From NCBI GenBank assembly GCA_044344595.1, contig JBIJCR010000003.1, forward strand, positions 5,960 through 69,959: a DNA stretch of 64,000 nucleotides. The letters are read 5' to 3'. Made by a program: the position numbers and the translations under genes. Origin of the DNA: Terrimicrobiaceae bacterium (GTDB taxonomy: Bacteria > Verrucomicrobiota > Verrucomicrobiia > Chthoniobacterales > Terrimicrobiaceae). The notes under the pieces were generated by a model. The model saw nothing but the letters and a program-made list of their open reading frames with translations, did not search any database and was not told where the DNA came from. Positions within the stretch are counted from its first letter, which is position 1; the number at the start of each line of letters is the position of its first letter. Below, in pieces: positions 21,665-47,164 of this stretch.

Positions 21665-21694
21665 TGCTCTTTTTCTCCTTAATAGTGAATATGT

Positions 21695-27500: not shown

Positions 27501-27644
27501 AGTCAGATGCTCGGAGCACTCGGCCACCGCCACTTCAACCACTGTCCGTCTCTGTGGACGAAGCCGCTTGTGCAGCCGATCCATACGATGGGCAATCTTC
27601 GGGAAAATCTGCGATGCGAGGCGTTGTTGGGCTTGATCTGTCAT
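24522..27644 (-). CDS. GH38 alpha-mannosidase
   Basis: GHSHIDCAWLWP and NQFHDILPGSSI are GH38 signatures. Start taken as ATG 27644 (MTDQAQQRL); the track extends to 27728. Confidence 0.9.
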   Translation of the reverse strand: MTDQAQQRLASQIFPKIAHRMDRLHKRLRPQRRTVVEVAVAECSEHLTPAQAARLKFRPAPAGTAWGKQPWGSSWFRLRIAIPREFAGSRVDLCWSPGEAIIWREGEPVHELDSNHGEYVLTRRAKGGERIELLVEAVSPYVIGNSFWGSPEGTTTTFPGGTLTSPEITTFDPQLWQLCQDLSFLRDLAAALPEDDTRRGLILRGIDLALAELDLRTDESISSPQSIACAREVLAPLLASPANASAQRFTAVGHSHIDCAWLWPMAETRRKCGRTFSTMLALMEEYPEFVFCQSQPLLYEFVRERYPTLWRRIARRVREGRWIPVGGMWVEPDCQITGGESLVRQLIHGIGYFEDNFGVTPRECWLPDVFGYSASMPQILKLAGIERFLTQKISWNTINEFPYHSFHWQGIDGSKVLTHFSPSNTYCSEVLPKQMIEAQGRHREKDRVADQLLLFGFGDGGGGVTRDMLERVRRSHDCEGLPKVAPGTPDNFFAALEARRDVLPSWCGELYLELHRGTLTTQAETKRLNRRAEGALRDAEVLSCLAWGTHAGRKTGDLHKAWRLVLNNQFHDILPGSSITLVHTQAEAELQRAIATAEHVRDQALEAYAADIDTRGEGQAVLLVNTLSWERTSVAELELPSLRGGSSATALAPDGTRLPVMRGHDGRYRMRATVPAMGHAVYHILPQAWSAKEAVPDTLDNGLVRVRLDRQGCVISIRDLRHGREVLKDGERISLTLLEDIPNSWDAWDVEHFARDKVLERDGELLSSEIIESNAIRTVLRQTRRLSQSHIELDIILEAGSPQVTFDARIAWGEERNVLLKADVPMAVHTDEARCEIQFGHVRRPTHRNTTWDQARFEVCAHRWVDLSETGYGVALLNNGRYGHDMLGSRVGLSLLRAPKTPDPRADIGRTHAITWAVLPHAGDHTAGVVRAGYELNTPLLVRAVASHAGTRPSAQSLLSVDSPYAVIEAVKPAERGDGIVVRLYEAHGATASTRLTTALPVRRAEAVDLRERSINKLRLQGNSIAVDLTPFQIRTVALK

Positions 27645-27912
27645 AATGATTGGTTTCTTCGGGGGCAGCTGGTCGACGATGGCTACCGGCGGTGAAGGGT
27701 TAAAACAAGTCGAAACGGCAGATCCCACCCTTCACCACAGCCATTGCCGAGAATTTCTTTAAGCTGCGACCGGCATGGACGATGATGCTGCATCATCTTC
27801 AGTTTCGATGCCTTCGGCAGATTCCACTTTGAGCAAGGGCGATTGTAACAGCGTGGACTCATTCCGGTCCCACGCCGGGGAGGCGGATTGTGGAAGTCTT
27901 TCTTTTGGTCGT

Positions 27913-29343
27913 TCAACCTCTCTCCTTCAGGTCGTATTCCGCAAGGATATAGGGATGTCCCGGTTGGTAGCGCGTGAGGGTCACCGGGTTTTCCACCCGA
28001 CCGCAAGGACGAAGGTTGCGCCCGGTGACGCCGGTCGCGCTGTCACCCAGGTCAATCCGGCACGCGGCGGCTTCCTGCAGCAAATCCTCCACGATCGCGG
28101 GATACTCATTGCTGACACTGCGGCTCTCAGCGACGTCGTTTTCCAGGTCGTATAATTCCTGAACGGGTTTGCCATCCTTGAGGAGGTGCAGCTTCCATGT
28201 TCCCTTTCTTACGGCATTCAGGCTGGTGCCTTTGTAATAGAAAAAGGTTTCCCGCGGCGTGTCTGCGGCCTGGCCTGAAAAGAGCATCGGGCTGAGGTCG
28301 TGCCCATCGATCCGCCGGTCCTGGGGCATTGGCACTCCCGCCAAGGCCGCGAAGGTGGGAAGGAAGTCGAGAGAAGCAGAAAGTCCCTCGCAGACCGTTC
28401 CTGCCGGGATGCGGGCCGGCCAGCGCAGGATGCACGGGACGCGTTGGCCACCCTCCCACGTGGTGGCTTTGGTTCCCCGGAGCGGTGCATTACTACCGCC
28501 TTCGCCACGGCAACGGGAGCCGTTGTCGCTGGTGAAAATGACCAACGTGTTTTCGTCGAGTCCCAGGGCACGCAGTTCGGTCATGAGCGCATCCAGCGCC
28601 CAATCCACACAGGCTACCGCCGCGCCATAACGCCCGTTCTTTGATTCGCGCAGAAAGCGATCCGGGACATAGAGAGGGAGGTGGACATAGAGGTGGGAAA
28701 AGTAGAGGAAAAATGGTTTATCGCGATGATCGCGGAGGAAGCGTACCGATTCCTCCACATAGCGTTCGGTGAGTCCTCCCTGTTCCGGTTGCTCCTGGAT
28801 GACGGCTTCGTCCCGGAGCAAGGGGAGGGGTGGATAGGGATCATCCGGCACCTGGCGGCCCATGTCATTGCTATAGGGAAGGCCGTAGTAGCTGTCGAAG
28901 CCGTGCCGGGTGGGAAGAAACTCTTTTTGATCGCCGCAGTGCCATTTGCCGACCATTTTTGTGGCATATCCCCCTTGCTTGAGCAGACGGGCAAGAGTCA
29001 TTTCATCGGGGTTCAATCCCACGCTCTGACCAGGAAAAAGAACCGGACGTCCCTCGAAATCCGCAAAGCCAATTCGCGGTGGATAACACCCCGTCATCAT
29101 CGCGCCACGGGACGGACTGCACACCGGAGAGGCCATGTAAAAATCAGTGAGCCGCAGCCCCTCGGCCGCCAAACGGTCGATAGCTGGGGTCCTATTCAAC
29201 TCGGACCCATAACAGCCCAGATCCCCGTAACCGAGGTCGTCGCAGTTGATGAGAATGATATTCGGCTTGGATGGTGGCTTCATAGGATGGGCAAACTTTA
29301 TACTTAACTCATCCCTTGAGGCGGCCACAAGCCGGGTTGTCAT
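27913..29343 (-). CDS. Cys-type sulfatase (arylsulfatase A-like)
   Basis: PNIILINCDDLGYGDLGCYG, the formylglycine motif CSPSRGAMMTG, and GKWHCG. No signal peptide. Confidence 0.9.
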   Translation of the reverse strand: MTTRLVAASRDELSIKFAHPMKPPSKPNIILINCDDLGYGDLGCYGSELNRTPAIDRLAAEGLRLTDFYMASPVCSPSRGAMMTGCYPPRIGFADFEGRPVLFPGQSVGLNPDEMTLARLLKQGGYATKMVGKWHCGDQKEFLPTRHGFDSYYGLPYSNDMGRQVPDDPYPPLPLLRDEAVIQEQPEQGGLTERYVEESVRFLRDHRDKPFFLYFSHLYVHLPLYVPDRFLRESKNGRYGAAVACVDWALDALMTELRALGLDENTLVIFTSDNGSRCRGEGGSNAPLRGTKATTWEGGQRVPCILRWPARIPAGTVCEGLSASLDFLPTFAALAGVPMPQDRRIDGHDLSPMLFSGQAADTPRETFFYYKGTSLNAVRKGTWKLHLLKDGKPVQELYDLENDVAESRSVSNEYPAIVEDLLQEAAACRIDLGDSATGVTGRNLRPCGRVENPVTLTRYQPGHPYILAEYDLKERG

Positions 29344-29366
29344 AAATAAGACGGCATGGATGTTGA

Positions 29367-29495
29367 CTATTCACGGCTTAAGGCGGCCAGGCGGTCGATG
29401 TTCGGGGTAGGGAGATACCGGTTACCGGCGCAGCTCAGCGAGTCGTGCCGCAGTTCGTCCGCTTTGATTACAATCAGATTGATGGGCAGAGTCAT
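29367..29495 (-). pseudogene. 42-codon relic of a sulfatase N-terminus
   Basis: My translation: MTLPINLIVIKADELRHDSLSCAGNRYLPTPNIDRLAALSRE*. It aligns with the sulfatase N-terminal block (compare PNILFLFPDQHRPDWLGCAGN..RTPHIDRLAA in the next gene). Its ATG overlaps the upstream sulfatase stop (ATGA). It ends at TAG 29367-29369, before any C-x-P-x-R motif. Confidence 0.5.
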
Positions 29496-30814
29496 CGCGG
29501 CAGGCGCTCCTGGAACAACGCGGCTAGGCGTGCAACCTTCTGCGGCTGGTCATGGGCCAGATTGCGGAATTCCCCGGGATCCTCCATTACGTCATAGAGC
29601 AGTGGCTGGGGTCCGGCACCCGAAACATACTTGAAACGCCCATCAAAGACCATACTCCAATCGTTCAAGGCGCTGGTCACCCAGTCGCGGTGTGACCGGG
29701 TGCTTCCTTCGAGCAGCGGACGGAGCGAACGCGCATCGCTGTCTGGCAGTGGCGCGGCGCCGGCGCAGTCCAAGAAGGTGGCGGCCAGATCGTGCAGCGC
29801 CACGAGCGCATCGGACTTCACTCCCGAGCGCACACCCGGGCCGGCCACGATCAAGGGCACCCCGCACGACGGCGTGTACCAGACGCTCTTGCCCCAGCGG
29901 TCGTGATCACCGAGCATTTCGCCGTGATCGCTGGCGTAGACGATCAGCGTGTTTTCCAGTTCCCCGCGTCGCTCGATGGCGGCAAGCATCCGTCCCACGT
30001 GCGCGTCGATGTTTTCGATCATGGCGGCGTAGTTTTGGCGTCGCTCAATGGTGTCCGGGGCTTGGGGGTTCGAGTTCCCAGTCGGTGGCGGGAATTCCAC
30101 CGTCCGCCAGCGTTCCCGCATCTCCGCAGTGACGTCGAACGGATCATGTGGCCCGACGAAGTTGACGACGAGGTGCCACGGTTTGCCCGCCGGGAATTCA
30201 CGCAGGTGGCGCAGGGCATTGTCAGCCAACCAGTTGTCGCAGTACGCGTGGTCGGGTAAGTCAGTCACCGCCGGAAAGTTCATCCAGCCCGGTTTGCCCA
30301 GATGCGGCTCGTACATGGCGAGGTGCGTGGCGGCCAATCCCTGCGCGGCGAGGAAGTGCATGTACGGACCCTTGGGCGCCATGCCGTTTTGGCGGTAGGT
30401 GACGATCGCATCGCCCTTGCCTTCATTGTCGCAGCCGCCGGTGAATCCGTATTCCGCCAGCAATTTGGTACCGTCGAGTCCCCAGTCATGATCGGGCTTG
30501 TGCAGGTCGAACTTCCCGACGCCGGCCACCTCATAACCGGCATCGCGCAGGTGGCGGTAGTAGGTCGGCAGAGACAAAGGCGTATTCTGGTCGTTGTTGC
30601 GAACTCCGCAGCGCTGATAGTCGCGCCCGGTGGCGAGACAGGCCCGCGCGGGTGAACAGAGCGGAGAGGGCGTGAAGGCGTTCGTGAAACGCACACCGCG
30701 AGCGGCCAACCGGTCGATGTGCGGCGTCCGCACCGGCAGGCCATTCCCGGCACAGCCCAACCAATCCGGCCGGTGCTGGTCGGGGAAGAGAAAGAGAATG
30801 TTTGGTTGCTGCAT
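29492..30814 (-). CDS. Cys-type sulfatase
   Basis: MQQPNILFLFPDQHRPDWLGCAG and CSPARACLATG. No signal peptide. Confidence 0.9.
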   Translation of the reverse strand: MQQPNILFLFPDQHRPDWLGCAGNGLPVRTPHIDRLAARGVRFTNAFTPSPLCSPARACLATGRDYQRCGVRNNDQNTPLSLPTYYRHLRDAGYEVAGVGKFDLHKPDHDWGLDGTKLLAEYGFTGGCDNEGKGDAIVTYRQNGMAPKGPYMHFLAAQGLAATHLAMYEPHLGKPGWMNFPAVTDLPDHAYCDNWLADNALRHLREFPAGKPWHLVVNFVGPHDPFDVTAEMRERWRTVEFPPPTGNSNPQAPDTIERRQNYAAMIENIDAHVGRMLAAIERRGELENTLIVYASDHGEMLGDHDRWGKSVWYTPSCGVPLIVAGPGVRSGVKSDALVALHDLAATFLDCAGAAPLPDSDARSLRPLLEGSTRSHRDWVTSALNDWSMVFDGRFKYVSGAGPQPLLYDVMEDPGEFRNLAHDQPQKVARLAALFQERLPR

Positions 30815-30919
30815 GAAGAACCTCCTATTTCAGACTGGGATGCTCATGTGGCTCAAGTGCCGGGGAAAGGTCTCGTGCTGAAAGTGACGCGCGTGATTCC
30901 AAGACTCATCAATCACACC

Positions 30920-31879
30920 TTACAATCCGTTCACAACATTGATGCGGCCGCCGTCGAGGAAAACCCGCGCATTCTCATAGGCGGTCTGCATGAGCCTGCG
31001 GCGGGCGTCCAGAGTGGCCCAGGCGATATGCGGTGTGATGCAGCAGTTGCGGGCCGCCAGCAATGGATTGTCCGGCGCCGGTGGTTCCGTGCTCAGGACG
31101 TCCAGTCCCGCTCCGGCAATCGTACCATTGTCCAGCGCGGCCGCCAGATCCTCCTCGACGACGAGAGGACCCCGGCTTGTGTTGATGAGGAACGCGCCCG
31201 GCTTCATCAGGCCGAGCCGATCGCGGTTCACCAGACCGCGCGTCTCATCCGTGAGCGGGCAATGGAGACTCACGACATCGCTTTCCCGGAATAGCGTCTC
31301 CAGGTCGGTCAGTTCGAAACCCGCGGCCTCCTTCTCGCCACCGGGCCGACCGCTGAGCAGAACCCGCATGCCGAAGGCCTGCGCGACGCGCGCCACGGCC
31401 TTGCCGATCCGGCCCGCCCCGACAATGCCCAGGGTCCGACCGGACAACTCCATCAGTGGGTGCTCCCAGAAACAGAAATCCGGCGACCGGCTCCAAGCGC
31501 CGGTGCGGACGCTGGCCCCATGTTCCGCCACATGATTGCAGAGATTCAGCAGGTGGGCGAACACCATCTGTACGACCGACGCGGTGCCGTATTCCGGGAC
31601 ATTGGTCACGGGAATACCACGCGCTGCCGCCGCCCCGGTATCGACGACATTGTAGCCGGTGGCGAGAACGCCGATATAGCGCAGCTTCGGCAACTGGCCG
31701 ATGGTGTCGGCGGAGAGCGGGGTCTTGTTCGTCAGCAGGATCTCGGCACCGGCGGCGCGGGAGACGATCTCCGCCTTGGGCGTTCGCTCGTGTACCGTCA
31801 GTTCCCCAAGGGCGGCGAAAGCGTCCCAGGAAAGATCCCCGGGGTTCAGGGTGTACCCATCCAAAATGATTATGCGCAT
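30920..31879 (-). CDS. D-isomer-specific 2-hydroxyacid dehydrogenase (glycerate dehydrogenase-like)
   Basis: 319 aa. NAD-binding motif GIVGAGRIGKAVARVAQAFGMRV, a C-terminal ITPHIAW catalytic His region, and a 10-nt overlap with the upstream sulfatase. Confidence 0.85.
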   Translation of the reverse strand: MRIIILDGYTLNPGDLSWDAFAALGELTVHERTPKAEIVSRAAGAEILLTNKTPLSADTIGQLPKLRYIGVLATGYNVVDTGAAAARGIPVTNVPEYGTASVVQMVFAHLLNLCNHVAEHGASVRTGAWSRSPDFCFWEHPLMELSGRTLGIVGAGRIGKAVARVAQAFGMRVLLSGRPGGEKEAAGFELTDLETLFRESDVVSLHCPLTDETRGLVNRDRLGLMKPGAFLINTSRGPLVVEEDLAAALDNGTIAGAGLDVLSTEPPAPDNPLLAARNCCITPHIAWATLDARRRLMQTAYENARVFLDGGRINVVNGL

Positions 31880-33342
31880 GTTGTGCTCCTTGGAGAGTGG
31901 TTTCCTTTGCCAATCCCATCTGCCCAGTTGCCGCGCCCGGTCTGCCGGAGGCGTTCGCGGTACTTGTCTGCATCCTCGTCCGGGGGCTCGCTCAGAACGG
32001 TGGCCAGCGGGTCCTCGTGATCATGAGCGGCCAGCATCTCCTCGCGCCAGGTGTCGAGCAGACCGGCGGCCCGCTGGACCAGGTCGGGGCGCGTGACAGC
32101 CAAGTCCTGCTGCTCGTGGGGATCGGCTCCGATATCGAAGAGCAGATTTTCCGGAATCTCGTAGTATCCGTTCCGGTAGGTGCGGAGGTAGATGTAGTCC
32201 CGCCCGGAATCCCGGAAGCGAACCGAGCGCTGGCAGGTCTGCGCCATTTGAGAGAGCACGAGATGTTCGCGGCCGGTGTCCGCCCCGCCGGGCTTGAGGT
32301 CCTCGGCGAATCCCCTGGCATCCCAGGATGGATGGCTGCCGATTCCGAGGCACTGGTTGACGGTAGCGGCCAGATCGATGTGGTAGTGCAGCGCCGTACG
32401 GCGTGCGCCGGACTCGGTGACCCCCGGCCAGCGGATGATGAGCGGCACCCGGGAAGTAATCTGGTCGGCGAAGCAATGTCCACCGTAGGAGTTCAGTTCG
32501 CCCAGATTCTCGCCGTGGTCGGCGCTGATGATGACAGCGGTGTCGTCGAGCACGCCCAGCGCCTCGAGTTCGCCGAGCAGTTGCCCGACATGTTGATCGG
32601 TGTAGCGGATGCCAACGTCGTAGCCGTCCACCATCTGCCTGATATCGGCGAGGGTCTCCAGTGCGGCCGGATTGCGCGGATGCCAAGCGGCGGCGCGGAG
32701 GAAGAGAGCGTCCTGCGCGGAGCGGATTCCGGGCTCCCGGCGATGACGCTCCAGGATTTCTTGAGTCAGCCAGTCGTGGGGCAGGGGACAGTCGGCGAAG
32801 GGATTGCCCATGTCTGCCGGTGCCCGGTAAGGCGTGTGCACATCCCAGTAGTTGACGTGCAAGAACCAGTTGTCATTCGTGGCGTTGCGACGGAGCCACT
32901 CGCTGGCGGCAGGGGTGATCTGGTTCGCGAGGTCGTGTCCGAAGTGGCCGGTGTCATGCGTCTCGGCGAATCCGGCGTACCAGTGCCAGGCGGAGTGCCG
33001 CTCGCCAAACGAGCTGAACGTGGCGGTGTACAGGCCGGCGTCTCGCAGGTGGCGCATCCAGTTGGTGCGGCCCCACTGGGAGCGGAACTTACGGGCAGTG
33101 CCATCGGGGAAAGGCTCAGCCCGCGTGCCTGTGTGCGAAACGCAGCCGTGGTGAATGCCGAACCGCCCGGAGAAAAGGCTGGTGCGGCTCGGCATGCAGG
33201 GCGCATCGGAGGCATGGACATTGTCGAAGACCACGCCCTCGGCGGCCAGGCGGTCGATGTTCGGACTGGTGTCGCGGCCATAGCCGTAACAGCCCAAGTG
33301 ATCGGGCCGCAGCGAGTCGATATCGATGTAGAGGATACGCAT
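31870..33342 (-). CDS. Cys-type sulfatase
   Basis: MRILYIDIDSLRPDHLGCYGY and CMPSRTSLFSG. No signal peptide. Confidence 0.88.
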   Translation of the reverse strand: MRILYIDIDSLRPDHLGCYGYGRDTSPNIDRLAAEGVVFDNVHASDAPCMPSRTSLFSGRFGIHHGCVSHTGTRAEPFPDGTARKFRSQWGRTNWMRHLRDAGLYTATFSSFGERHSAWHWYAGFAETHDTGHFGHDLANQITPAASEWLRRNATNDNWFLHVNYWDVHTPYRAPADMGNPFADCPLPHDWLTQEILERHRREPGIRSAQDALFLRAAAWHPRNPAALETLADIRQMVDGYDVGIRYTDQHVGQLLGELEALGVLDDTAVIISADHGENLGELNSYGGHCFADQITSRVPLIIRWPGVTESGARRTALHYHIDLAATVNQCLGIGSHPSWDARGFAEDLKPGGADTGREHLVLSQMAQTCQRSVRFRDSGRDYIYLRTYRNGYYEIPENLLFDIGADPHEQQDLAVTRPDLVQRAAGLLDTWREEMLAAHDHEDPLATVLSEPPDEDADKYRERLRQTGRGNWADGIGKGNHSPRSTTCA

Positions 33343-33442
33343 TACGTGTCCCCTTCCAGTTTGCGCAGATCTTTCTCCGGTGTGCGGCTTGACAGGAAAT
33401 CATTCCTTGATGTTCCTGCGCGCATTGCTGCCTTGGATACTA

Positions 33443-34828
33443 TCAGCATGCTGGACTCCGTGTCATTGTCTTCGGTTCCGCTTCCTGCGGCAGATAACAT
33501 CCCCGCTCGCGGAGGGTTTGCACCAGCGTGGCGGTGTCCAAGTCGCAAGCTGGCTGGCCGGTCCTGATCGACTGCACGGCGGCGCAGCCCGCCGCCTCGC
33601 CGAGCATGTAGCACGCTGGCTGATCGCGGATCGCGCCGTTCACTTCCACATCGCTCGACACGCAGCGGCCGGCTGCCCAGAGGTTCGTCCACCCGCGTGG
33701 CACCAGGATTCCATAAGGCAGACCGTAGCTTTCACCTGGCTTTAGGCGGTCCCTCTTCTCGTAGCTCTCATAATAGCGCTGAAACTCCTCGGGCGTGAGA
33801 TCGTAGACGTGGATGTCCACGCCCTTGCTGTACACGCCGATCTGATCGTCAAACTTGCGGCGGGCTTTGAAGTCGGCGTAGTTGAGCTCATACTCGCCTT
33901 CGATGTTACGCGACTCGCGCACGCCCATCAGCGCGCCTGTGCTGACGAGTTCGAGTTTTTCACAGCCCTGCAGATGCTTCTGGAAGAAACTTGCGTATTC
34001 CGCCGCCAGCTGGCGGCCTTTCACGTAACCCTCGGTGAGGCTCCTGATCTTCACCGCGTTCATACGGAAGATGTGGCCGGCATTCTGTATGCCGTGCGAT
34101 CCTTTGCTGTGGAAGAGGCCCGGCACGTGCCGGTCGGGCTGGCTGAACTCGCCGGCCTCCACTCCGCGCTTGATCGCATCCTGCTGGTCGGCTTAGCTGA
34201 AGCCCCAGTCAACGTTCGCGACCGTGGCACAGAGCGTGGGCGGCATGATGTTCGGCGTATCGCGGCCGGCTTCGCGGTATTTCGCGCCGCAGAGGTCGGC
34301 GACGACCGCGTCGCCGGTGGCATCGATGAAGGCCTTGGCCGGCACGTAGCGAAGGCCCTCGATGTGCTGGATCACCACGCCGCGGACTTTCTTTGACGGC
34401 TTGTCAACATCCGCCTCGATCACGCGCGTGCTGAAGAGCAGATCGACGCCGGCGTCGAGTACCATCTTGTCGAGCACGCGCTTGAGCGGCTCGGCAGAGA
34501 ACTGGATGCCCATCCAGGGCTTCATCGTGTCGGGGTCGAGGCCGTTTTTCAGGCCGCCGGCGCCGTGGAGGGTGCGCACGATTTCCCAGAACAGCCCGCG
34601 GGTAAGGATCTGCTCGCCGTCGGACAGACAATACCAGCTTGCGACCAGGCCGTTGGTACCCATGCCGCCCAGTGCGCCGGTGGCTTCAACGAGCAGCGTC
34701 TTGGCACCGGCGCGGGCCGCGCTGATCGCCGCCGCCGTGCCCGCAGGCCCGCCGCCGGCAACGACGACGTCGTAGGAACTCTCGATCGGAATCTCTCGTT
34801 GGAATGTGTAATGTTTCATGCTTGTCAT
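33443..34828 (-). pseudogene. FAD-dependent oxidoreductase (PF12831-like) interrupted by one in-frame TAA
   Basis: Track ORFs 34193..34828 (VVVAGGGPAGTAAAISAARAGAKTLLVEATGALGG) and 33443..34162 are in the same frame. The only interruption is TAA at 34193-34195 (...VDWGFS*ADQQDAIKRGVEAGEF...). Read through, the product would be 460 aa with one residue inserted at the TAA, and would be collinear with the paralog at 1..1119. Confidence 0.65.
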
Positions 34829-34840
34829 TATTCTTAAACT

Positions 34841-35956
34841 TCATCGATCCACGTGTCTTAGAAATGGTTCGGCCGGCAGTCCGTGCGAGTTGAAGAGGTT
34901 TGCTTCCGTCCACGAGTGCCAAGCGTAGCGGACTTGGCGGACCTCGGAGGGACTCGTGATGGTGACGGTGTCGCCGGTGATGGTGCCGGTGACCTCATGG
35001 AATTCGCCGTCCGCTCCGGCGACCTCGAGCCCGCAGAGTGGTTGGCCGTCAGTGCGCAGGCCGTCGCCGGCATTGTCGAACCGGAGCGTGCGGCCATCGG
35101 GCTCGACGCGGGCCAGCGTGGGTCCGCGCCACGCGACCGGCTGGCTGTAGACCAGCGCCCGCGCGGCGCGGGCGAGGCGCTCGCCAACGGGTTGTTTGCG
35201 CTTGGGATGGATGTCGTCCTTCTCGCCGACATCGAGCGAGACAACCATCGCGGTGTTCGGGACAGTCTGTGCGACGTTGCGTTGGACCTCGCGCAGCCGC
35301 GCCCAGTCCTCATGAGGGTGGCCACCAAAGGTGGAAAGTTGCACGAACAGGAACGGAAGTTCCCGGCCCCAGGCCGCACGCCAGGAACGGATCAGAGCGG
35401 GGAAAAGCGTTTCGTACCACTCGGGAAATGCCGCATCACCTTCACCCTGATACCAGATCACCCCTCGGATCGGGAGTTTGTGCAGTGGCGCGATCATGCC
35501 GTTGTACAACGCCCCCGGCCGACGCACATACGGGTTGGGCGGCTGCCAGATGGACTCCGGGTTGGCCACCTCACTCCGCTTCTTCAGTGCCCATTCGTAG
35601 TGGGCGATTTTGTCCGCTTCACGGGCCGCGATCTGGTCCCAATGCGGATCGGCCTCGACGACTTCGCGTGGAAGCCAGCTGGTGATCGAGGTCGCGCCAA
35701 GACTGGCGTTGATCATCGTGACCGGCACTGAGAGCGCCTGACGCAGGTTCCGTCCGAAATGGTACGCCACTGCCGAAAACTCGTCTGCCGGCACATCCCA
35801 CTGCGGCTCCACCGCAGTGCAGGGCACATCGGCGTCGCGAACCGGTATGTGGCAGAGGCGTAGGAGGGAGTCTTCCGGCCCGGCCGGCTCCGCCGCGTTC
35901 TTCACCACCAGTTCCATGTTTGACTGCCCGCTGGCGAGCCAGAGTTCCTCATTCAT
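34841..35956 (-). CDS. SASA/sialate O-acetylesterase-like SGNH esterase (short form)
   Basis: The GQSNM motif (LWLASGQSNMEL) lies near the N-terminus, and GVIWYQGE is also present. ATG 35956 overlaps the upstream gene's stop (ATGA). The track ORF reaches 36067, inside the upstream gene. Confidence 0.8.
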   Translation of the reverse strand: MNEELWLASGQSNMELVVKNAAEPAGPEDSLLRLCHIPVRDADVPCTAVEPQWDVPADEFSAVAYHFGRNLRQALSVPVTMINASLGATSITSWLPREVVEADPHWDQIAAREADKIAHYEWALKKRSEVANPESIWQPPNPYVRRPGALYNGMIAPLHKLPIRGVIWYQGEGDAAFPEWYETLFPALIRSWRAAWGRELPFLFVQLSTFGGHPHEDWARLREVQRNVAQTVPNTAMVVSLDVGEKDDIHPKRKQPVGERLARAARALVYSQPVAWRGPTLARVEPDGRTLRFDNAGDGLRTDGQPLCGLEVAGADGEFHEVTGTITGDTVTITSPSEVRQVRYAWHSWTEANLFNSHGLPAEPFLRHVDR

Positions 35957-36900
35957 CGCGCAGCCTTGAGGTCGAAGCCTTTGGGTGTGATCGGCGGCAG
36001 CTTCAGCAGCCGATAATGCTTGAAGGGGATTGATACCATGTCCTGATCGCTCAGCAGTTCCGCCCACGAACGATCAGAATGCCCCCACAAGCCTTCGGCA
36101 TAGATTGCCGCGCCCTTCCCTCCATCCACATTTACCATGCCGTGTTCCTGCAAGGCGTGCGCAATCGTGCGCGCCCCGGGCGAGAGCGCAAAGCGGTCGA
36201 GATCGAGCGTGGGGTCAAGCTGGAGCACGGCGCCTTCGGGGATACCGCTGGGAGTCTGACCGTCACCCCAGATGGCCGGGAAGACGAATTCCTTGAAGGC
36301 GTTGACGCAAGTGGCAAAAGAAAGTTTGTGGTCGATGCGACCCTGCAGCAGCTCTTCATGCGAAATCAGCCCGGCGATGGCCGGGACGCCGATGGCCCGG
36401 CTGGGTCCGTACCAGTGGGTGCTCTCACCGTCCTTTGCCGGAAAGAGTACCGGATCGAAAAGACCGGGGCCGTCGAGGCTGTAGGCCATGCCGGTGAACG
36501 ATTCGAGTTCGCCATCGCTGCGCCAACGAGCCCCCCACATGTCCCAAGCAAGCCGGCGTTCATCGTCCACGAGCGCGAGATGGCCATCTGCTTCGCGCGC
36601 CGGGACGAAGTTCCGGTTGGGTTGGGGGATCAGCGGGCCGAAACCCGGGCCGTGGCGGAAGCCGGAACTGGGGAGATAAGTCTCGCCGGGCTGGACCTCG
36701 CGCTGGTGAACCCGGCGCAGCGGCGTCTCATGCGTGACCTGGTAGACCGGGATCGTCCAGTAGTCATGGTTTATCCAGAACCCGCCGCGCGGGACATTTG
36801 CTTCCAATAGCCGAATACAATGTTCGCTGCGAGGGTCGATCTCCGGGTTCGCCGGCAAGGGCGTATTCCAGAAGCTGTCCTCGCTGAAGAAACGTTTCAT
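35953..36900 (-). CDS. Conserved protein of unrecognised family (paralog 1)
   Basis: 315 aa, no signal peptide. Shares long blocks with 45724..46767: HLALVD.ER..AWDMW, DGES.H.YGPSRA.GVPAIAGLI, GRI.HKL.FAT, PAIW.DG, GIP.GAVLQLDP.LDLD, ALQE.GMVNVD. Confidence 0.8.
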   Translation of the reverse strand: MKRFFSEDSFWNTPLPANPEIDPRSEHCIRLLEANVPRGGFWINHDYWTIPVYQVTHETPLRRVHQREVQPGETYLPSSGFRHGPGFGPLIPQPNRNFVPAREADGHLALVDDERRLAWDMWGARWRSDGELESFTGMAYSLDGPGLFDPVLFPAKDGESTHWYGPSRAIGVPAIAGLISHEELLQGRIDHKLSFATCVNAFKEFVFPAIWGDGQTPSGIPEGAVLQLDPTLDLDRFALSPGARTIAHALQEHGMVNVDGGKGAAIYAEGLWGHSDRSWAELLSDQDMVSIPFKHYRLLKLPPITPKGFDLKAAR

Positions 36901-36922
36901 GGGTTGGAGCTCGTAAAATGGG

Positions 36923-38413
36923 TTAACGGCACTTCTTTATGAACGAATACGCTGTAGTTCCAGGGTAGTCAGTAGTCTTCAACTCGTCTATCAGAATGGC
37001 TTTCATTTGGTCAACGACTGGCTGCATATCCGACAGACGGGAGAGATTTCTCATCTCATGGGGATCGCTCTGTAAATCATACAACTCGCATTGCCCCGAT
37101 GCGCCGGCGCTGAACTTGTAATGCTGGTGCCTGATGGTGAACATGGTGTGCGCGACGCCCAGAAGTCCGTTCGTTTCAATCAGGATCCGGTCCCTCCAGG
37201 CTGGCTTTTCCCCATGCAGCAACGGCCAGAGTGAACGGCCCTTGACCTCGGTCTTGTCATAATCAGCCCCAGCGATTTCACAGAACGTCGGGTAGAGATC
37301 CGCGAGGGAAGCCCATTCTTCGAGAATGGTCCCGGCCGGCAGCGGGCTGCGATCATGGTGTTCGGGCAAGCGGAACAGCATGCCGATACGCTGGACCTCT
37401 TCGAAGGTACACCGTCCCTTGTCTTCCATCCCGCCGTGACTGCCGATCGTGTCGCCATGATCGCTGGAAAAGACGGTGACGGTATTCTTGTCCAGTCCAG
37501 TTTCAGACAGAAAGGCTAGGACCCGGCCGATCTGGTGATCGATCAGCGTGGTAAAGGCATAATAATAACGGATGGCCTCGGCCCAATTGTCCCAGGTAAA
37601 GGCTTCTGCGGGTTCCTTCCGTTGCATGGCATGAGGCATCGCATCCTTCAAGGCATCGAACTCAAAATTCGGCCAAGGCGGGATGTCCAGATCCTTATAC
37701 ATGTCGTAGTATTCCTGCGGAACATAATAGGGGTGATGCGGACCCCATTCATTGTGCCAGATGAAGAATGGCTTGTTCTCTTTGACGGCATTCTTGATCA
37801 AACCGATGGTGTGTTCCGCCAGGAAATAGGGCACCGTCGACTCCACTGGGCCTTCCGTTATGCCATATTCGGCAGGATAGCGATTGCCTTCGTGGCGCGG
37901 CAGCACCGTGTGTTTCCAGCCATTCCGGCTCAGATAGTCCTGATACTCCTGGAGTTTGAAGCCGCCGCCACCGTGACCGTGGAAATTCTGACCAACAAAT
38001 CCGACATCTTGGGGAAGTGCCGGATGGTTTTCATAGCCGAACATTTTTTTCCAGCCGGAGCCCAGGTGCCACTTGCCGGTATAACCGCAGCTGTAGCCCG
38101 CTTCGATCAGCCGACGCGAAAGGAGGCCGGGACGGTCGCGCAACTCGTGCATGCCGGATTGAAGGTCCTCGGCATTGCAGCAGAAGCCATGCTGATGTGG
38201 ATACATGCCGGTCATGACCGTGGCTCTGGCCGGGGTGCAAACCGGGGTGGTGGTATAGGCGGTTTCGAACCGGACCCCTTGAGCCGCCATGCGGTCAATA
38301 TTTGGCGTCTGGCAGACGGTCGGGCCATAACAGCCCAACGCGGAAAGACGCTGCTGATCGGTAAGGAACAGAAGGATGTTCGGTTTTTGTTTCTTAATCT
38401 CGTCGCACTCCAT
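36923..38413 (-). CDS. Cys-type sulfatase
   Basis: KPNILLFLTDQQRLSALGCYG, CTPARATVMTG and GKWHLG. No signal peptide. Confidence 0.9.
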   Translation of the reverse strand: MECDEIKKQKPNILLFLTDQQRLSALGCYGPTVCQTPNIDRMAAQGVRFETAYTTTPVCTPARATVMTGMYPHQHGFCCNAEDLQSGMHELRDRPGLLSRRLIEAGYSCGYTGKWHLGSGWKKMFGYENHPALPQDVGFVGQNFHGHGGGGFKLQEYQDYLSRNGWKHTVLPRHEGNRYPAEYGITEGPVESTVPYFLAEHTIGLIKNAVKENKPFFIWHNEWGPHHPYYVPQEYYDMYKDLDIPPWPNFEFDALKDAMPHAMQRKEPAEAFTWDNWAEAIRYYYAFTTLIDHQIGRVLAFLSETGLDKNTVTVFSSDHGDTIGSHGGMEDKGRCTFEEVQRIGMLFRLPEHHDRSPLPAGTILEEWASLADLYPTFCEIAGADYDKTEVKGRSLWPLLHGEKPAWRDRILIETNGLLGVAHTMFTIRHQHYKFSAGASGQCELYDLQSDPHEMRNLSRLSDMQPVVDQMKAILIDELKTTDYPGTTAYSFIKKCR

Positions 38414-38923
38414 GGGCAGTAACTGGAGCTTTCCTCAAATCCGATCGGCGTGTCGTTGCCACCAGCTCGCAGCGGCTCCAGCTGCGGGCACGCAACCGTC
38501 CTGCGCCTAGCAAATCAAGGCTTCCAGAGTATAGGGGTTATCCATGTTTCGTCCCAACGGTGCATCGCAGGAAGTTTGTTGTTGTATACGTGCTTGACAC
38601 CTTCTCGGACCAGCAAATGGTGTATTTTTTTGAGTGTGACTGCACCGCTCGAGATGGGAATCCTCTTTTTTCACCAAATCTTCCTCCGGCCAGCACGAGG
38701 CGACACTTCTGCTGAAAACTCTCCCGCTGCTTGGTCACGAGCAGGTTCGGACGATGGGCCGTCGGCGGCGGTGCTGCAAGCCGGCATCCGAAGCAAGCAG
38801 GTGAGGCTGCGAGCTTCAGAATGTGTGGCACTTTGGATTTTTTTTTCGGTTTATTCATGATGGTGTGCTGGGGATTTCACACCGGCTCTATGGACGGTTG
38901 CTCGCCTCAGAAACGTCGCCGAG

Positions 38924-41437
38924 TCATTTGCCGCCGCCCTTCTTTTTTGTTTGGGGGTTGAGATTTATCCATTCCTCGACACGTGCGAATTGCGGGGCAT
39001 CAAAATCCTCGGGTAGGGTGTTGAAGACCAATTCGCGCTCCATCTGCGGATTGCTCTCAAAGGGCTCGAGGAGAATGAGCTGGTTCCGGAAGCGTTCCGG
39101 ACTAAAGATCTTATCTTTCGCCGGTTTGGTATCCCACAAACCCCATTCGGCAACGCGAATCTTCTTCGCGTCGAGCTTGCCTTGCCGGACGGAAACGACC
39201 TCGTATTCGTTGATCACAAGAGCATTCCGGTAGGGGGCGATCTGATCGGGGGTGGGAGTCTTGCTGGTCTCCAACAGGTTCACCTCGGCGACGATCCGTT
39301 CTGGCATCTTGCGCTCGGTGAGGATCTTGGTGAACGCGTCTGTGTTGGCCTTCACTTCTGACTTCGCCAGCGGGCGATTATAGATTGCGACGGCATCGAT
39401 CCAGCCTTGCCAAGCGGCAGGTTTATACTTCAGCTCCTTGCCCAGAGACACGCCATTGGACCAGTTGATATTCGCCTTTCCTTGAATATCGGTGCTATCG
39501 GCGGTTTGCACGCCGTCGAGCCACGCTTGCACCCGGCCGGGCGTGAGAGTGACGACCAAGTGATGCGTGTTCGTGTCGGTCAACTTGCCGATCTGTACGG
39601 GGGGTTGTCCGGCCACCTTCAAAAGCAAAGTGTCGTCGAGTTGCTGCACCATCACACCCTCTTGGGATGTGCCGACGATAACCAGATAGGATGCGCCATC
39701 GGGATCGGTATACTTGTCGATTTCGGAACGCTGCTGTACTTGGCGTGTGGCGAATACCAGTTCGATGGTCAACTCGCCGGACTTTTCATAGGCAGCGCGG
39801 AGAGGGGCGCTCGTAGACTTGTCGATCAAAGGCACATGGCCGTCGTTACCGCATGGCAGCGCCCACCGACCAAAGCGATCGAGCGCTGGAAATCCAAGTT
39901 TTCCTGCCGCGAATTTACTGAGCTTGAGCTCAGGGCTTTCATACCGTCCCGCCGCGCCGAGCGTGTAAGAGCTGTCGGCAGTCCAAACGAGCAGCACCCC
40001 GTCGGGAGAGGTCGGCCAGGCCGGCGGGGCGATGGGGATGGCAGCACCGGCCAGCGGGTTCGGCGTGCTCGCACAATCAAATACCCCGCGCAGGGTCAGC
40101 GAGTCGGCCTTGGCAAGCGGCTTGTCGAGATCGAGTTGGAGTTCCTTCTCGTCGCCGGTGACCTCAAGCTTCAGTACCGAGTTGCCCGATGCAAGGGTGC
40201 CAGTGGCATTTTTGAGTTGGATGCGCTCCGAGAAGGTCAGCATCGCACGCAAAGGTCCAATCATATTGGCGCTCACCAGCTGGGGTGCTTCCTGCGCCGT
40301 GACGAACACTTTGCCGGTTTTGTCGCCCAGCTTGACGGTGTATTCGCCGGGCTTGGTGTAGGTGTGCTGAGGCTCGGTGCCGGAGGCGCCGTCGCCGTAA
40401 TCCCAAGTGCCTCTCATGTGCGATGGGAAAGAGACAGAAAACGGGGCTTCTCCAGACCACTGTCCGACGGGGAACTGGAGGTCCGCGGTCGGCACCTTCT
40501 CAAGCCACACATAGGGAAGCTCATAAAATGCCTGCGGAGAGGCTTGCTTGCCGGAGGTCAGGCGGACTTGGCCTTCGAGCTTGTTGAACTCGGCGTTGAA
40601 CTTGCCGAAGAAAACGTCGCTGTAGGGATATTTTCCCATCGGCCCGAAAAAAGTGAGGAACCTTGGATGGTTCGTCGTGCGGGCGCGGCTTACTTGGCCG
40701 CCGCCGACATCAAGAGGTATCGTGGCGTGCTCGGCGGGATTACGGCGAAACAGATTGTTGTAAACATGAATCGCGGTGTGACCGAAGTTGACATGAAACA
40801 TCCGATAACTGTTGTCGGGGAGGATGTTCGAGTTGCAGCCTTCCTTGATGGCTGGGAACACCTCGCCGTTCGGTGCGGTAAACAATGCGCACCGCGGCCA
40901 TTGTACCTGGCTAGCAAGGAAACGCCCATCCGCTGAGAGGCTGACCGGAGCGTCCAGATCGGTTTTGTCCCACACCAGTTCCTCTTTCGTCGGGTCTTGC
41001 GCGGGGAAGCGGTAGATGACACTGGAGCGCCCGTCACTGCCCTGTTGTTTCGAGTAATAAACCCATAATTGACCGGTGGCCGGGTCGCTCCAGAGCGTGG
41101 ATAGCCCGTAGCCCTCCAGCAGTTTTTTTTCACCGGTGCCATCCCATCCGATCGAGTGGATTGTGCCCGTACCATCATTATTTTTTCCCTTCAAGCTGAC
41201 ACTGAAAAAAATCGTCTCGCCATCGGGTGAAATCATAGGCCAAGTCAATTCCTTCTCGGTGGCCGTGTACAGATCGCGCACCTCTCCCGACTTGGTGTCA
41301 AACGCTTGCAAGATCTTCCTGTCCTTGACCCAGACGGCTTTGGCGGGAGTGCCGCCGGTCAGGGTGAGAACCTCGTTCTTCACATCGGCAAAGGCAGACG
41401 CGGCAACGACCAGGAACAAGCAGGTAAGCAATTTCAT
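38924..41437 (-). CDS. Secreted multidomain protein: TolB-like beta-propeller, PKD domain, LamG-like domain
   Basis: ATG 41437 gives the signal peptide MKLLTCLFLVVAASAFA; the track starts at 41539. PKD motif WDYGDGASGTEPQHTYTKPGEYTVKL. LamG-like segment (HHLVVTLTPGRVQAWLDGV). GC content is lower than in the upstream array. Confidence 0.8.
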   Translation of the reverse strand: MKLLTCLFLVVAASAFADVKNEVLTLTGGTPAKAVWVKDRKILQAFDTKSGEVRDLYTATEKELTWPMISPDGETIFFSVSLKGKNNDGTGTIHSIGWDGTGEKKLLEGYGLSTLWSDPATGQLWVYYSKQQGSDGRSSVIYRFPAQDPTKEELVWDKTDLDAPVSLSADGRFLASQVQWPRCALFTAPNGEVFPAIKEGCNSNILPDNSYRMFHVNFGHTAIHVYNNLFRRNPAEHATIPLDVGGGQVSRARTTNHPRFLTFFGPMGKYPYSDVFFGKFNAEFNKLEGQVRLTSGKQASPQAFYELPYVWLEKVPTADLQFPVGQWSGEAPFSVSFPSHMRGTWDYGDGASGTEPQHTYTKPGEYTVKLGDKTGKVFVTAQEAPQLVSANMIGPLRAMLTFSERIQLKNATGTLASGNSVLKLEVTGDEKELQLDLDKPLAKADSLTLRGVFDCASTPNPLAGAAIPIAPPAWPTSPDGVLLVWTADSSYTLGAAGRYESPELKLSKFAAGKLGFPALDRFGRWALPCGNDGHVPLIDKSTSAPLRAAYEKSGELTIELVFATRQVQQRSEIDKYTDPDGASYLVIVGTSQEGVMVQQLDDTLLLKVAGQPPVQIGKLTDTNTHHLVVTLTPGRVQAWLDGVQTADSTDIQGKANINWSNGVSLGKELKYKPAAWQGWIDAVAIYNRPLAKSEVKANTDAFTKILTERKMPERIVAEVNLLETSKTPTPDQIAPYRNALVINEYEVVSVRQGKLDAKKIRVAEWGLWDTKPAKDKIFSPERFRNQLILLEPFESNPQMERELVFNTLPEDFDAPQFARVEEWINLNPQTKKKGGGK

Positions 41438-41757
41438 GAAACCTAACCTTCGGATAAGTAATTTACTGCGCTTCCTTGCACGAGGATTCATGATGGCTTG
41501 TATTAAAGTGAACAGAGTTTCTGCTGTTTTGTGCTTCATGGTTCGTTTTTTTAAATGGGTAAATTGGAAGTTTATCGAGAGTGATTGAATGAGTGTTGAT
41601 GGGCTGCAATTGCCGATGTGAGGTCACATATGTATTAGAGAATTTGGAATAGATGAATGATCCAGAGCGGGTGTGAGACATTATCGATAGGGACTTTCAT
41701 ACGAAATAAAACCGATGGTTCAGGAAAGTTGCGGAATTTGTGAGTTGTAAAAATGTT

Positions 41758-44700
41758 TCAAGGTGCTTTGTGGAACTCGAAAACGCCCCAGTTTATGGGA
41801 GTGAGCATGGCCTCGCCGGGAACGTCTGTCGTCATCCCGCTGTTTTTGTTGTGCCAATAGAGCCTTTGCACTGTCTCTCCGGAGGGGCCACGCAGTAATC
41901 CAATGTCACCTTTGACGGTGGTGCCATCAGAGGGCTGCAGGCCAAGAACTTCCAAGGGCACGGAGAACTCGAAGAGAAAACGGTCGAGAGGTTTCATCTT
42001 GACGTAGGTTTCCGCCGGAAATTGGACCAGATCGGTGATGTCCTCCACGCGGTCGAAAAACACATTGCGCCAACCGGAGCTGAATTCGACGCGTTTATCG
42101 CTGTTTTGCGGATCAACTTGACGGTAGAGGGTGGCCTTGATTTCGCCGCCTTTTTTGCTGCGAGTTACCAAGATACGCTGATCGCCAGCAACCGGCTCGG
42201 TGCGGGACGGATCGGCTTTCGGGTTGTTGGAGATCATCAAGTCGAGAGCGCCGCCGGTTTTGAAAAGAATCTGGGGGTCTTCCAGATTATTTTCGAGCTT
42301 CTCCCGGAATGATGTGCGGACAGCGACATGCAACCGGTCTCCGGCTACCATGACAGCGGCATCCAGGTTCTCTTCGAGGGGAGCCCACTGGGCGTTTTTC
42401 CAATCATTGGCTTCAGCCAAGGTGGGACGCGGGGCGGACGAGACAGACACTTTCAGAGGCGCTTGGGTCTCGCGTGCGGTGGCTGTACGGCGGGCCATAC
42501 TTTGGCTGGCCGCAATGAGCTGTTCGCCGGTTACGGTGAGCGTTTGGGGAGGAATGCGGCGAATGGTATCAAGGCCATCCAGACGTGTTATACTGGAGCG
42601 CTCGCCGCCGATCACCATGTAGATATTGCCGTTTTGGGCCTGGATGACGGAGGGCCAAAAACTTTCCTGCCCATTGGTGTATTCGCTCACCGCATCGCCT
42701 CGTTTGATGTCTTTGGGCCAGCTTTTGGCGCGTCGCTGGTCTTGGGTAACCGAGGCGACAAATAATCCGTCGGAAGTCATGGCATAAATCCCGCCGAAGT
42801 TTCCGTTGTAAAACCAGATCGATCCGGCGTCGCCCTTTTCGGGAAACACGGCGGGCCCGAGGACGCGGGTGCCCCCGATAATATCCCCAGGCCACCGGGG
42901 GGGGGGAGAAGCATGGGAGGAATGCAGCGAGGGCCATTCATTGGGATAAGTCCACATCAGTTTACCGTCGCGATAGCCTTTGAGCGGGCCGTCGGATTGA
43001 ACAATCCATCCGTCGTGGCCGCGGAGCACCATGTTGCCGCCACTGCCGGTCTCGTTGTATTTCAGAGGCTCTGGCGTGACCGGGGTCTTGGCATCGGCTT
43101 TGAAAACCGGCGCGCCGACCTCATTGAAACCGGTGGGTTTGAAACTGTTGCCCCGCGAGTCAATCAATTCCATCTCCGGTGAGAGGGTTAATTTGCCCAC
43201 GGGGAAGTTTTCATCAAAGACTACTTCGTTGGGCTGGGGGCTGCCATCACCGTTTTCATCGGTCCAGATGAACAGCATCTGTTTCGGATATTTTGCGGAC
43301 ATATTCAAGGATGCGGGGAGGATTCCTGCCCACTCTTCTCCCTTGAATGGAGGGAAATCAGAGGGATTGCCGAGCGCGGCTGCCGGGCGGGCGATTCGGT
43401 CTTCCTCCCCCATCAGCCAGAAAACGGCCACATCGGCGCCACCGGTGGCATGATCGTGTGTGGCATTGGTGAGATAACGGCGGTTGTTGATAAGGATAGG
43501 GAATTGTGGGGCGCCGCGCATGCGGGCATGGGCAGCAAGACCCTGGCGGTCGTAAATGAGGCTGTTCACGGTGAAGTCACCCTTTTCGAAATCCAGCTTG
43601 AACTCCATGGGAAGTGCCCCGTAATGCTTGTGGTCGTAGTAGAAGTATTGGAGATCCGGAGAAAGGACGCCTCCGCCGCCGTAGTTGGTGGGGCCATAGA
43701 AGGCCTTCTGGAAGCTGCCGTCTTTGTTCCACAGACTGAACCGGCGAGGTCCCGTGGTACTTTCGATCACCCAGAGCGTACCATCCGGCGCGACAGCTAC
43801 CCCGTTAGGGGATCTCATGGCGGTCTCATCGTAACGGCCAATCTGAGGCGTGCCCGGCTTGCCGTAGGTGCGAACAAGTTTTCCGGAAGCATCGAAGGCC
43901 TTGACTTGCTGCGACGGGTTTTCACCCCATACGTCGAAGTCGGAAACGTAAATTTTACCGTCCCCGGCGATTGTGATCTGATTGGCGTTGTCGAGACCGG
44001 AAGTGATGAAGTCACGGGGAGCAGGAAGCTCCGCGCCATTGGTCGACCAATTGGCAGGCAGATCATAACGAACCACTTTGTTGCCTGTTCCCGCCAGGAG
44101 GAAACGGCCTTTGGGATCAAAGGCGAGACCGGCCGGGGAGGGAAGCTCCACCTCCTTCACGAGTCGGCCTGCCTTGGCGTCGATGACGAGAATTTTACCG
44201 GCATCGCGCATGCTGACGACAAGGATGCCGTTGTAGGCTGCCAAACCGCGTGTTTCCATGTGGCGGAATTCATGCGTGAGGGATAGCTCCTCGGGAAGAA
44301 CGCGCTTTTCCTTGCCGTCCTTCAGTAGCGCCATGAGGCGAAGTGCCTTAGCTTTACCGCCTTTTTTCTTTTTGCCGTCCTCTGCGATATTGACGGTGTA
44401 AACGTGGACATCCGGGTCCGCCAAGGGGCCACGATCTTGAGTGACGAAAAAGGCCGCGGTGTGGGTGCCTCCTGCCCATCTGCGTCCGTTGAGCTTACGG
44501 CCGTCAAGGGTCATCCAGACCAAGCCGTCGCCCCATTCTGCTCCCGGGGAAACGATGAGCATTTGCGGCTCATTGCCGTAAGGTGAGCCGTCTGGAAGAA
44601 AGACGATGCCGGTTGGTGAAACGTGATCGGCGAGCCAGCGCCCGATCTGGCGTCCGTTTTCCAAGTAACTCCATGGAGGGGTGCCCGGATTGTAGACTGT

Positions 44701-47073: not shown

Positions 47074-47164
47074 TTCAGTTCGTTTGGCAGTGGTTGAGCG
47101 GTCGCAAATATCAGGAACCTCACCACCGGATGTTCAAACAATGGCTTTGTGCCGACACCCTAAG

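Follow-up and report, generated by a model that had tools for sequence, protein, structure and literature searches.

What do two related proteins that belong to no recognisable family do in the midst of a gene array for polysaccharide degradation? The question is raised by a stretch of 64,000 nucleotides from a Terrimicrobiaceae bacterium (assembly GCA_044344595.1, contig JBIJCR010000003.1, forward-strand positions 5,960 to 69,959), hereafter the window, to which all positions refer unless another locus is named. A preliminary description, made from the sequence alone, had singled out the two genes as a family that it could not assign and as a candidate new carbohydrate-active enzyme (CAZyme), and had proposed profile searches, structure prediction and a comparison of gene neighbourhoods as checks. 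X serves here as the working name of the unnamed protein family that contains both paralogs, X1 and X2, with the stop codon counted in the ends:

35953..36900, minus strand, paralog 1 (X1): 315 amino acids, cytoplasmic, family X
45724..46767, minus strand, paralog 2 (X2): 347 amino acids, cytoplasmic, family X, with a helical insertion at residues ~76–92

X is an undescribed family, with no match among the described families or solved folds of the libraries searched. It is a widespread and well-folded domain with an invariant histidine, near-invariant acidic residues, and the modularity and gene neighbourhoods of a CAZyme. As to what this mostly-beta domain of about 310 residues does in a family of such size, the reading that we favour over all others, with about an even chance, is that of a catalytic module cleaving glycosidic bonds in complex glycans.

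The relationship between the two proteins is beyond doubt. A nearly full-length BLASTP alignment gives 167 identities over 326 positions (51 %, E 3e-106), which rules out chance by a wide margin, and all the blocks that had been listed as shared are found in both (HLALVD..ER..AWDMW, GM.Y.LDG.G.F, DGES.H.YGPSRA.GVPAIAGLI, GRI.HKL.FAT, PAIW.DG, GIP.GAVLQLDP.LDLD and ALQE.GMVNVD). They do not stem from a recent duplication, since the distance between them equals that of either to homologs in other phyla. The proposal that both lack a signal peptide holds as well, because the conserved domain begins at residue 3–5 and the open frame before the ATG extends for only 12 codons in X1 and 11 in X2. Comparison of X1 with its two orthologs yields a ratio of nonsynonymous to synonymous substitution rates (dN/dS) of ~0.15–0.19, so that X1 is a real gene under purifying selection.

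Searches of the available libraries bear out that the family is not assignable. Pfam-A contains no family for X1 or X2 up to E=10, and the sole line obtained from NCBIfam, EnvC for X2, is insignificant (E 0.23, 10.4 bits against a cutoff of 270 bits). Among PDB sequences, phmmer finds no hit for X1 up to E=10, while profiles of the subfamily and the superfamily recover insignificant hits only (a mitomycin-binding protein at E 0.27 and ribosomal protein S6 at E 0.03). The AlphaFold2 models are confident, with a predicted local distance difference test (pLDDT) of 93.9 and a predicted template modelling score (pTM) of 0.92 for X1, and 90.2 and 0.91 for X2. The X1 model is mostly beta-strand and has four helices of at least 4 residues. 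Foldseek compared both models with 350,542 PDB chains, and neither found a counterpart at E<=1e-3; the best values were E 0.086 with a template modelling (TM) score of 0.23 for X1, and E 0.7 with TM<0.1 for X2. The top X1 hit, the GH102/MltA-type lytic transglycosylase 2pnw, superimposes with a root-mean-square deviation of 12 Å and is absent from the X2 search; this assignment was rejected. An esterase of the SGNH or alpha/beta-hydrolase type was likewise discarded, the X1 model being mostly beta and no esterase family matching in Pfam or NCBIfam. Pfam families matched in a set of 60 multidomain relatives number 48; the 25 most frequent of them are all accessory or partner domains, and none comes into consideration for the X region. 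The listed homologs all carry the source name "hypothetical protein". We found no description of family X in the literature, where the relevant papers are limited to CE20 and ChbG.

The family is large. An exhaustive search with a hidden Markov model (HMM) of 1.84 billion representatives, clustered at 50 % identity, retrieves 6,954 clusters at E<=1e-3, 3,405 at <=1e-10 and 653 at <=1e-30, and the family spans at least 10 bacterial phyla. A word-indexed search recovers 285 close relatives of the window copies, which remain about 50 % identical even across phyla. In reference genomes this close subfamily occurs in Verrucomicrobiota, Lentisphaerota, Kiritimatiellia, Planctomycetota, Bacteroidota, KSB1, Calditrichota, Acidobacteriota, Bacillota (including cultured Paenibacillus), Armatimonadota and Sumerlaeota. 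Plasmid-borne members of X are found in Tsukamurella, Streptomyces, Mitsuaria and Indioceanicola (Actinomycetota, Pseudomonadota). Proteins of the close subfamily are mostly stand-alone and single-domain, and about half of them appear cytoplasmic, because a crude N-terminal test finds no extension before the domain. Across the representatives of the superfamily, the same test detects an N-terminus resembling a signal or anchor in about three quarters. In several metagenome-assembled genomes (MAGs) at least two copies occur at dispersed sites, and tandem duplications are seen in a Planctomycetaceae locus (L003, 8796–10981) and in a Pirellulales locus (L066, 6264–9379), where the second copy is a YdjC::X fusion.

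In the close subfamily 37 columns are invariant, including Asp105, His107, Trp119-Asp120, Ser160, His162, Arg168, His191, Asp213, Gln251, Asp259, Tyr267 and Glu269. Over 119 diverse representatives of the superfamily, residues are retained as follows:

His191: 100 %
Ser9, Asp105, Glu183, Gln251 and Tyr253: 97 % each
Asp259: 94 %; Ser25: 92 %; Asn12: 91 %; Gln227: 88 %; Arg168: 87 %
Asp112, Asp229 and Asp233: 83–86 %; Asp213: 78 %

The catalytic candidates named beforehand thus fare unequally. The histidine of HKL (His191) and Asp105 are kept across the superfamily, whereas the aspartate of WDMW falls below 75 % and the DGES/GESxH motif is replaced by a GARGSG-type motif in the broad consensus. 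X1 itself deviates at one of these positions: its codon 253 (36142–36144) encodes His (QEHG), a change unique to X1, where X2, the orthologs at loci L007 and L008 and 97 % of the superfamily have Tyr (QxYG). The function of the window copy may therefore be altered or relaxed.

Fusions with other domains point to carbohydrates. Among the 60 multidomain relatives, GH114, a glycoside hydrolase (GH) family, is present in five, and PKD, Big, CBM96, CBM2, SLH, dockerin, the Por secretion tail, malectin, CWB2 and a PHB-depolymerase-type esterase are also encountered. Further fusions join X to CBM9 and a chondroitinase-B-type beta-helix, to GH114_assoc and malectin, and to an alpha/beta esterase. Within the close subfamily, the partners are YdjC, a creatininase-family amidohydrolase, and DUF1961 with a 3-keto-disaccharide-hydrolase domain. 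X is thus fused both to carbohydrate-binding modules (CBMs) and to other CAZy modules, and therefore behaves like the catalytic domain of a CAZyme.

Relatives of X are also found in phages. Against the predicted viral structures of BFVD, Foldseek gives strong matches, with E 7e-19 to 8e-15 and TM 0.64–0.71 for the four best hits; gp9 of Gordonia phage Guillaume and a parallel beta-helix protein of an uncultured phage are among the matches. Of the library families, PHROG 17388 alone matches X significantly ("minor tail protein"; E 4e-7 for X1, residues 167–270 or a third of the domain, and 6e-7 for X2). It is a cluster of phage proteins that carries no functional information and of whose 702 profile positions about 100 are matched. 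"Minor tail protein" labels in phages are calls made by annotators and not experimental results. By tblastn the domain is present in 36 Gordonia phages. The carriers are proteins of 640–985 amino acids encoded among virion structural genes (L087–L090, from phages Guillaume, Asapag, Stormageddon and Forza). In Guillaume the X gene is located between those for the portal and the capsid protease, and in Forza gp90 the same protein combines X with a CE4 polysaccharide deacetylase domain.

Gene neighbourhoods were surveyed by seeding gene calls with X HMM hits and comparing the open reading frames (ORFs) immediately up- and downstream in about 80 unique loci with Pfam. The most frequent neighbours are sulfatases (6), YdjC (5), SASA (3–4) and PF00756 esterases (4), followed by LamG (3) and by GDSL, SusD, GHL6 and GH29 (2 each); GH2, GH3, GH5, GH20, GH116, DUF2961/GH172 and AXE1 occur as single cases. 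YdjC is found within 10 kb of X in 10 of about 88 unique loci (in Planctomycetota, Calditrichota and Bacteroidota), three of which are YdjC::X fusions. Since YdjC is usually a low-copy gene, this proximity would by a rough estimate lie far above chance. Individual loci are in line with the survey. A Pirellulales operon has the order unknown – YdjC::X – YdjC – GH2 – GH106 – GH106, a creatininase::X fusion is followed by GH20, and one copy of X resides inside a GH43/GH57/GH130 array. On two unrelated contigs (L002, 7696–10963, and L091, 2042–9638), X accompanies a PFL-like glycyl-radical enzyme and Zn-dependent alcohol dehydrogenases, with YdjC and a GFO/IDH/MocA oxidoreductase in addition on L091; these loci may represent a recurring anaerobic sugar-processing module. 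A different setting is provided by the plasmid NZ_CP011515.1 of Mitsuaria sp. 7 (L095, 7818–9314), where a distant homolog of 498 amino acids annotated as "hypothetical" directly follows two acyltransferases in a cluster for exopolysaccharide (EPS) biosynthesis (epsE/F, exosortase B, acyltransferases, glycosyltransferases and a flippase). In EPS clusters, such positions are usually occupied by dedicated EPS hydrolases or lyases.

In raw counts, X thus recurs in polysaccharide-degradation clusters across taxa, as seen in the window array, in the survey and in individual loci. The conservation of neighbourhoods that the preliminary description had proposed to examine is found in the carbohydrate-active partners that come back in the survey, in single loci and in fusions. 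Across phyla the partners are deacetylases and esterases, the deacetylases being the most consistent, and the sulfatase link is tight in the lineage of the window alone. Taken with the failure to match any characterised family, the conserved association with carbohydrate genes supports the earlier proposal of a candidate new CAZyme.

In the window itself, Pfam scans place GH, sulfatase and esterase genes around both paralogs, and the genes that matter most for their interpretation are the following:

15356..49338, minus strand, same-strand array with both paralogs, ~34 kb
34841..35956, minus strand, SASA/CE20-like O-acetylesterase of 371 amino acids from the ATG at 35956; Pfam SASA E 8e-19
36923..38413, minus strand, S1 sulfatase, 22 nt upstream of X1; Pfam Sulfatase E 2e-41
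47401..49338, minus strand, full-length SASA/CE20-like esterase of 645 amino acids; Pfam SASA E 1.5e-16

The order of the array is GH1, GH31, GH63/MGH1-like, GH95, GH38, sulfatase, sulfatase, 2-hydroxyacid dehydrogenase, sulfatase, FAD oxidoreductase (interrupted), CE20-like esterase, X1, sulfatase, LamG/PKD protein, NHL-repeat protein, orf136, X2 and CE20-like esterase. The paralogs are thus embedded in a sulfatase/esterase array, as had been noted, and the ATGA overlap noted at 35953–35956, between the stop codon of X1 and the start of the downstream esterase, is present in the sequence and couples the two genes translationally. The product of this esterase gene begins MNEELWLASGQSNM and is of the SASA/SGNH type. 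Its best PDB relatives are the CE20 carbohydrate O-acetylesterases 9h4u and 7kmm; the CE20 family has been described (PMC12313940). The 371-residue protein matches CE20 enzymes over the two halves of the SGNH domain only, and therefore has neither the inserted ancillary domain nor the flanking beta-sandwiches. The 645-residue esterase aligns along full-length CE20 enzymes and has an 85 % identical ortholog at L008. X2 follows it downstream, as stated previously, across a gap of 634 nt. The domain of the S1 sulfatase starts at residue 11, so that this protein lacks a signal peptide; altogether, three of the four array sulfatases and the first esterase leave no room for one. The sulfatase matches Pfam SGSH_C, and its PDB relatives are moderate and comprise mixed O-sulfatases (E~1e-44). 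The idea that it is an SGSH-type N-sulfatase that would supply X with a free-amine sugar found no support, as no N-sulfoglucosamine sulfohydrolase is present among the 60 chains listed of the 79 matched.

The nearest relatives of the locus are in two MAGs, one labelled Lentisphaerales (X1 84 % identical) and one from Chthoniobacterales (X1 79 % identical, other array genes 85–93 %). The triad of sulfatase, X1 and CE20-like esterase is kept at L007 and L008, in these two genomes, with rearranged flanks. Orthologs of the sulfatase (86–89 % identity) lie upstream of X at both loci, directly adjoining it at L007 and separated from it by one PF00756 esterase at L008, and the short CE20-like esterase stays next to X in each case. 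The Chthoniobacterales MAG also has an X2 ortholog (85–86 %), which is found at a separate locus (L021) beside three sulfatases.

How could these activities cooperate? Secreted or surface-attached members of X, which make up most of the superfamily and are often equipped with CBMs, would serve as depolymerases, be it in catabolic loci, in the EPS cluster or in phage proteins. The window copies are part of a single-domain subfamily that is tightly conserved (~50 % identity between phyla), and we infer that they work intracellularly on oligosaccharides taken up by the cell. Sulfate and acetyl groups would be removed by the adjoining S1 sulfatase and CE20-like O-acetylesterase before X acts or together with it, so that X can cut the exposed linkage; within the conserved triad it would be the sole candidate for bond cleavage. 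The substrate probably contains amino sugars, because X is repeatedly coupled to YdjC, CE4, a creatininase-type amidohydrolase, GH114 and GH20. A more specific proposal, which we advance only tentatively, is that X founds a new CAZyme family, with a fold absent from the PDB and members in at least 10 phyla and in virion-module proteins of actinobacteriophages, that would cut specifically at de-N-acetylated (free-amine) amino sugars. This specificity would explain why X is joined to three unrelated folds of the N-deacylase type (YdjC, CE4 and creatininase-type) and to GH114. Few families are known to cleave at free-amine amino sugars.

Several observations weigh against X as a glycosidase. Just two carboxylates (Asp105 and Asp259) count as conserved throughout the superfamily, and the conserved residues would suit other chemistries as well: the His/Tyr/Arg/Gln/Asn set could serve a lyase, Ser9/His191/Asp could form a hydrolytic triad, and Asp/His/His could bind a metal. 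Sulfatases represent about 6 of 157 immediate flanking genes, and outside the lineage of the window their link with X may by estimate be close to background in sulfatase-rich genomes. It may also be that X is a recent CAZy family with neither a structure nor a Pfam model, although the indirect evidence from Pfam, the PDB and source names speaks against an existing CAZy family. A carbohydrate deacylase, esterase or amidase, using a Ser9-His191-Asp triad or an Asp/His metal site beside esterases that act at other positions, would agree with the conservation of Ser9 (97 %), His191 (100 %) and Asp105/Asp259 (97 %/94 %), with the very frequent occurrence of X among esterases and deacetylases and with the location of the Mitsuaria member directly after two acyltransferases, and GH114::X fusions would then parallel the hydrolase-plus-deacetylase pairing of PelA and PgaB. 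We nevertheless regard such an activity as unlikely. It would mean that X had been joined, deacylase to deacylase, to each of four unrelated families (YdjC, CE4, creatininase-type and alpha/beta esterase), whereas a bond-cleaving X fits all fusions observed (GH+GH, CE+GH, CBM+GH) and is thus the more parsimonious. In addition, the core of L008 (sulfatase, PF00756 esterase, X, CE20 esterase) would hold no enzyme able to cleave a glycosidic bond, and the mostly-beta model is neither SGNH nor alpha/beta-hydrolase, with no esterase family matching by sequence.

If X does cleave glycosidic bonds, it could do so by beta-elimination, as a polysaccharide lyase with His191 as base, Tyr253 as acid, and Arg168, Gln251 and Asn12 neutralising the carboxylate of a uronate. 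The most conserved polar residues (His191 100 %, Tyr253 97 %, Gln251 97 %, Asn12 91 %, Arg168 87 %) do form a set which we take to resemble that of His/Tyr lyases such as PL7. A chondroitinase-B-type beta-helix is among the fusion partners of X, and the domain also occurs in a phage beta-helix protein. However, X1 has His in place of Tyr253, the partners YdjC, CE4, GH114 and GH20 indicate amino sugars rather than uronates, and no GH88/GH105 or KduI/KduD/KdgF-type gene appears among the 25 most frequent families per census or in the individually annotated loci. A lyase is therefore improbable in our opinion, and a hydrolase the more likely of the two. The occurrence of X in large phage proteins among virion structural genes raises the question of peptidoglycan, which X would hydrolyse or lyse to breach the wall on behalf of a phage or to turn over the wall of a bacterium. 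Occasional YkuD/LysM neighbours, fusions with CWB2 and SLH, a Bacteroidota copy located just after the dcw cluster, and an MltA-type lytic transglycosylase as top Foldseek PDB hit of X1 go in the same direction. That hit is not significant (E 0.086, TM 0.23) and is not repeated with the X2 model; moreover, the window copies are cytoplasmic, while fusions with CBM2, CBM9, CBM96, malectin, dockerin and GH114 as well as GH106, GH43, GH95 and sulfatase neighbours indicate other glycans, which makes this role very unlikely. We give still slightly less credit to a non-catalytic domain for carbohydrate binding or scaffolding, even though the annotation pipeline PGAP labels the X-carrying Tsukamurella protein "carbohydrate-binding domain-containing protein" and X often accompanies true catalytic modules. 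The window subfamily is mostly stand-alone, single-domain and for about half apparently cytoplasmic, the invariant histidine and near-invariant charged residues persist in very divergent members, and X is itself fused to genuine CBMs in the manner of catalytic modules.

A glycosidic-bond-cleaving X would find its closest functional counterparts among the pairs of hydrolase and deacetylase that process exopolysaccharides, namely PelA, PgaB, and GH114/Ega3 with Agd3. As in these systems, X is coupled to a deacetylase (YdjC, CE4 or creatininase-type) and to GH114, and one member is located in an EPS cluster. Unlike them, it resembles GH114, GH153, GH166 and CE4 in neither sequence nor fold, and the window copies are cytoplasmic and belong to a catabolic array instead of a biosynthetic operon. 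Intracellular precedents are also known. In an archaeal route, a deacetylase acts along with an exo-beta-glucosaminidase. In the ChbG/YdjC-dependent catabolism of chitobiose, the function of ChbG has been reported (PMC9402603). Both routes combine a cytoplasmic N-deacetylase with a glycosidase for the deacetylated product, the very logic that we infer for YdjC::X fusions and YdjC neighbours. However, their glycosidases are of the GH4 and GH35 families, neither of which X resembles, and in contrast to the ChbG route the window locus has no YdjC, the partners being a CE20-like O-acetylesterase and a sulfatase. A third comparison is with the depolymerases of phage virions, since the X fold is present in Gordonia phage virion-module proteins and in the uncultured phage beta-helix protein. 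Tailspike depolymerases are mostly beta-helix or SGNH proteins, whereas X is a compact, mostly-beta domain. In the tests run, X belongs to none of the families of these three systems. We therefore describe it as a new family that performs a known kind of function, with a fold that Foldseek leaves unplaced in the PDB.

New CAZyme families regularly emerge from degradation loci. X stands out by its size, by its breadth across bacteria and phages, by the lack of a structural neighbour and by the concrete, testable substrate hypothesis that its repeated coupling to deacetylases provides. If X cleaves glycans, a function would be gained for some 7,000 clusters of "hypothetical proteins", many of them encoded in polysaccharide-degradation loci of bacteria of the Planctomycetes-Verrucomicrobia-Chlamydiae (PVC) group, Planctomycetota and Bacteroidota, recyclers of glycans from algae, microbes and hosts. 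The CAZyme repertoire would acquire a new fold, together with an enzyme that might fill a gap in the degradation of sulfated, acetylated and amino-sugar-containing polymers, and a depolymerase module would be identified that seems to be part of the virions of Gordonia phages.

Some further features of the window deserve mention. On the 3' side of the short esterase, a PF12831 FAD-dependent oxidoreductase (33443–34828, minus strand) is interrupted by a single in-frame TAA at 34193–34195. Its ortholog at L008 is 93 % identical and intact, with Tyr at the position of the TAA. The codon and the residue of the ortholog both speak against selenocysteine, and the TAA is either a nonsense mutation, which makes the gene a pseudogene, or a sequencing error. 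As listed, the GH31 ORF (16771–19362) and the GH63/MGH1-like ORF (19241–21664) overlap by 122 nt (19241–19362); the true GH31 start probably lies further downstream. Directly downstream of X2, an ORF of 136 codons (45130–45540, minus strand) has no Pfam match and no tblastn hit, in a filtered search, in the ortholog locus L021, and may not be a real gene. A scan of 33–50 kb for promoters and terminators gave counts at or below shuffled expectation and is for this reason uninformative. The array is preceded on the plus strand (1241–14880) by genes for two giant proteins of the secreted type, a 2,873-residue S8 subtilase with PPC, Big_5 and PKD-like domains and a 1,648-residue GH28/pectate-lyase-fold protein with Calx-beta repeats. 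Its other end is bounded on the plus strand (49874–55734) by an AddB/AddA-like pair, in which a PD-(D/E)XK nuclease is followed by a UvrD-type helicase-nuclease.

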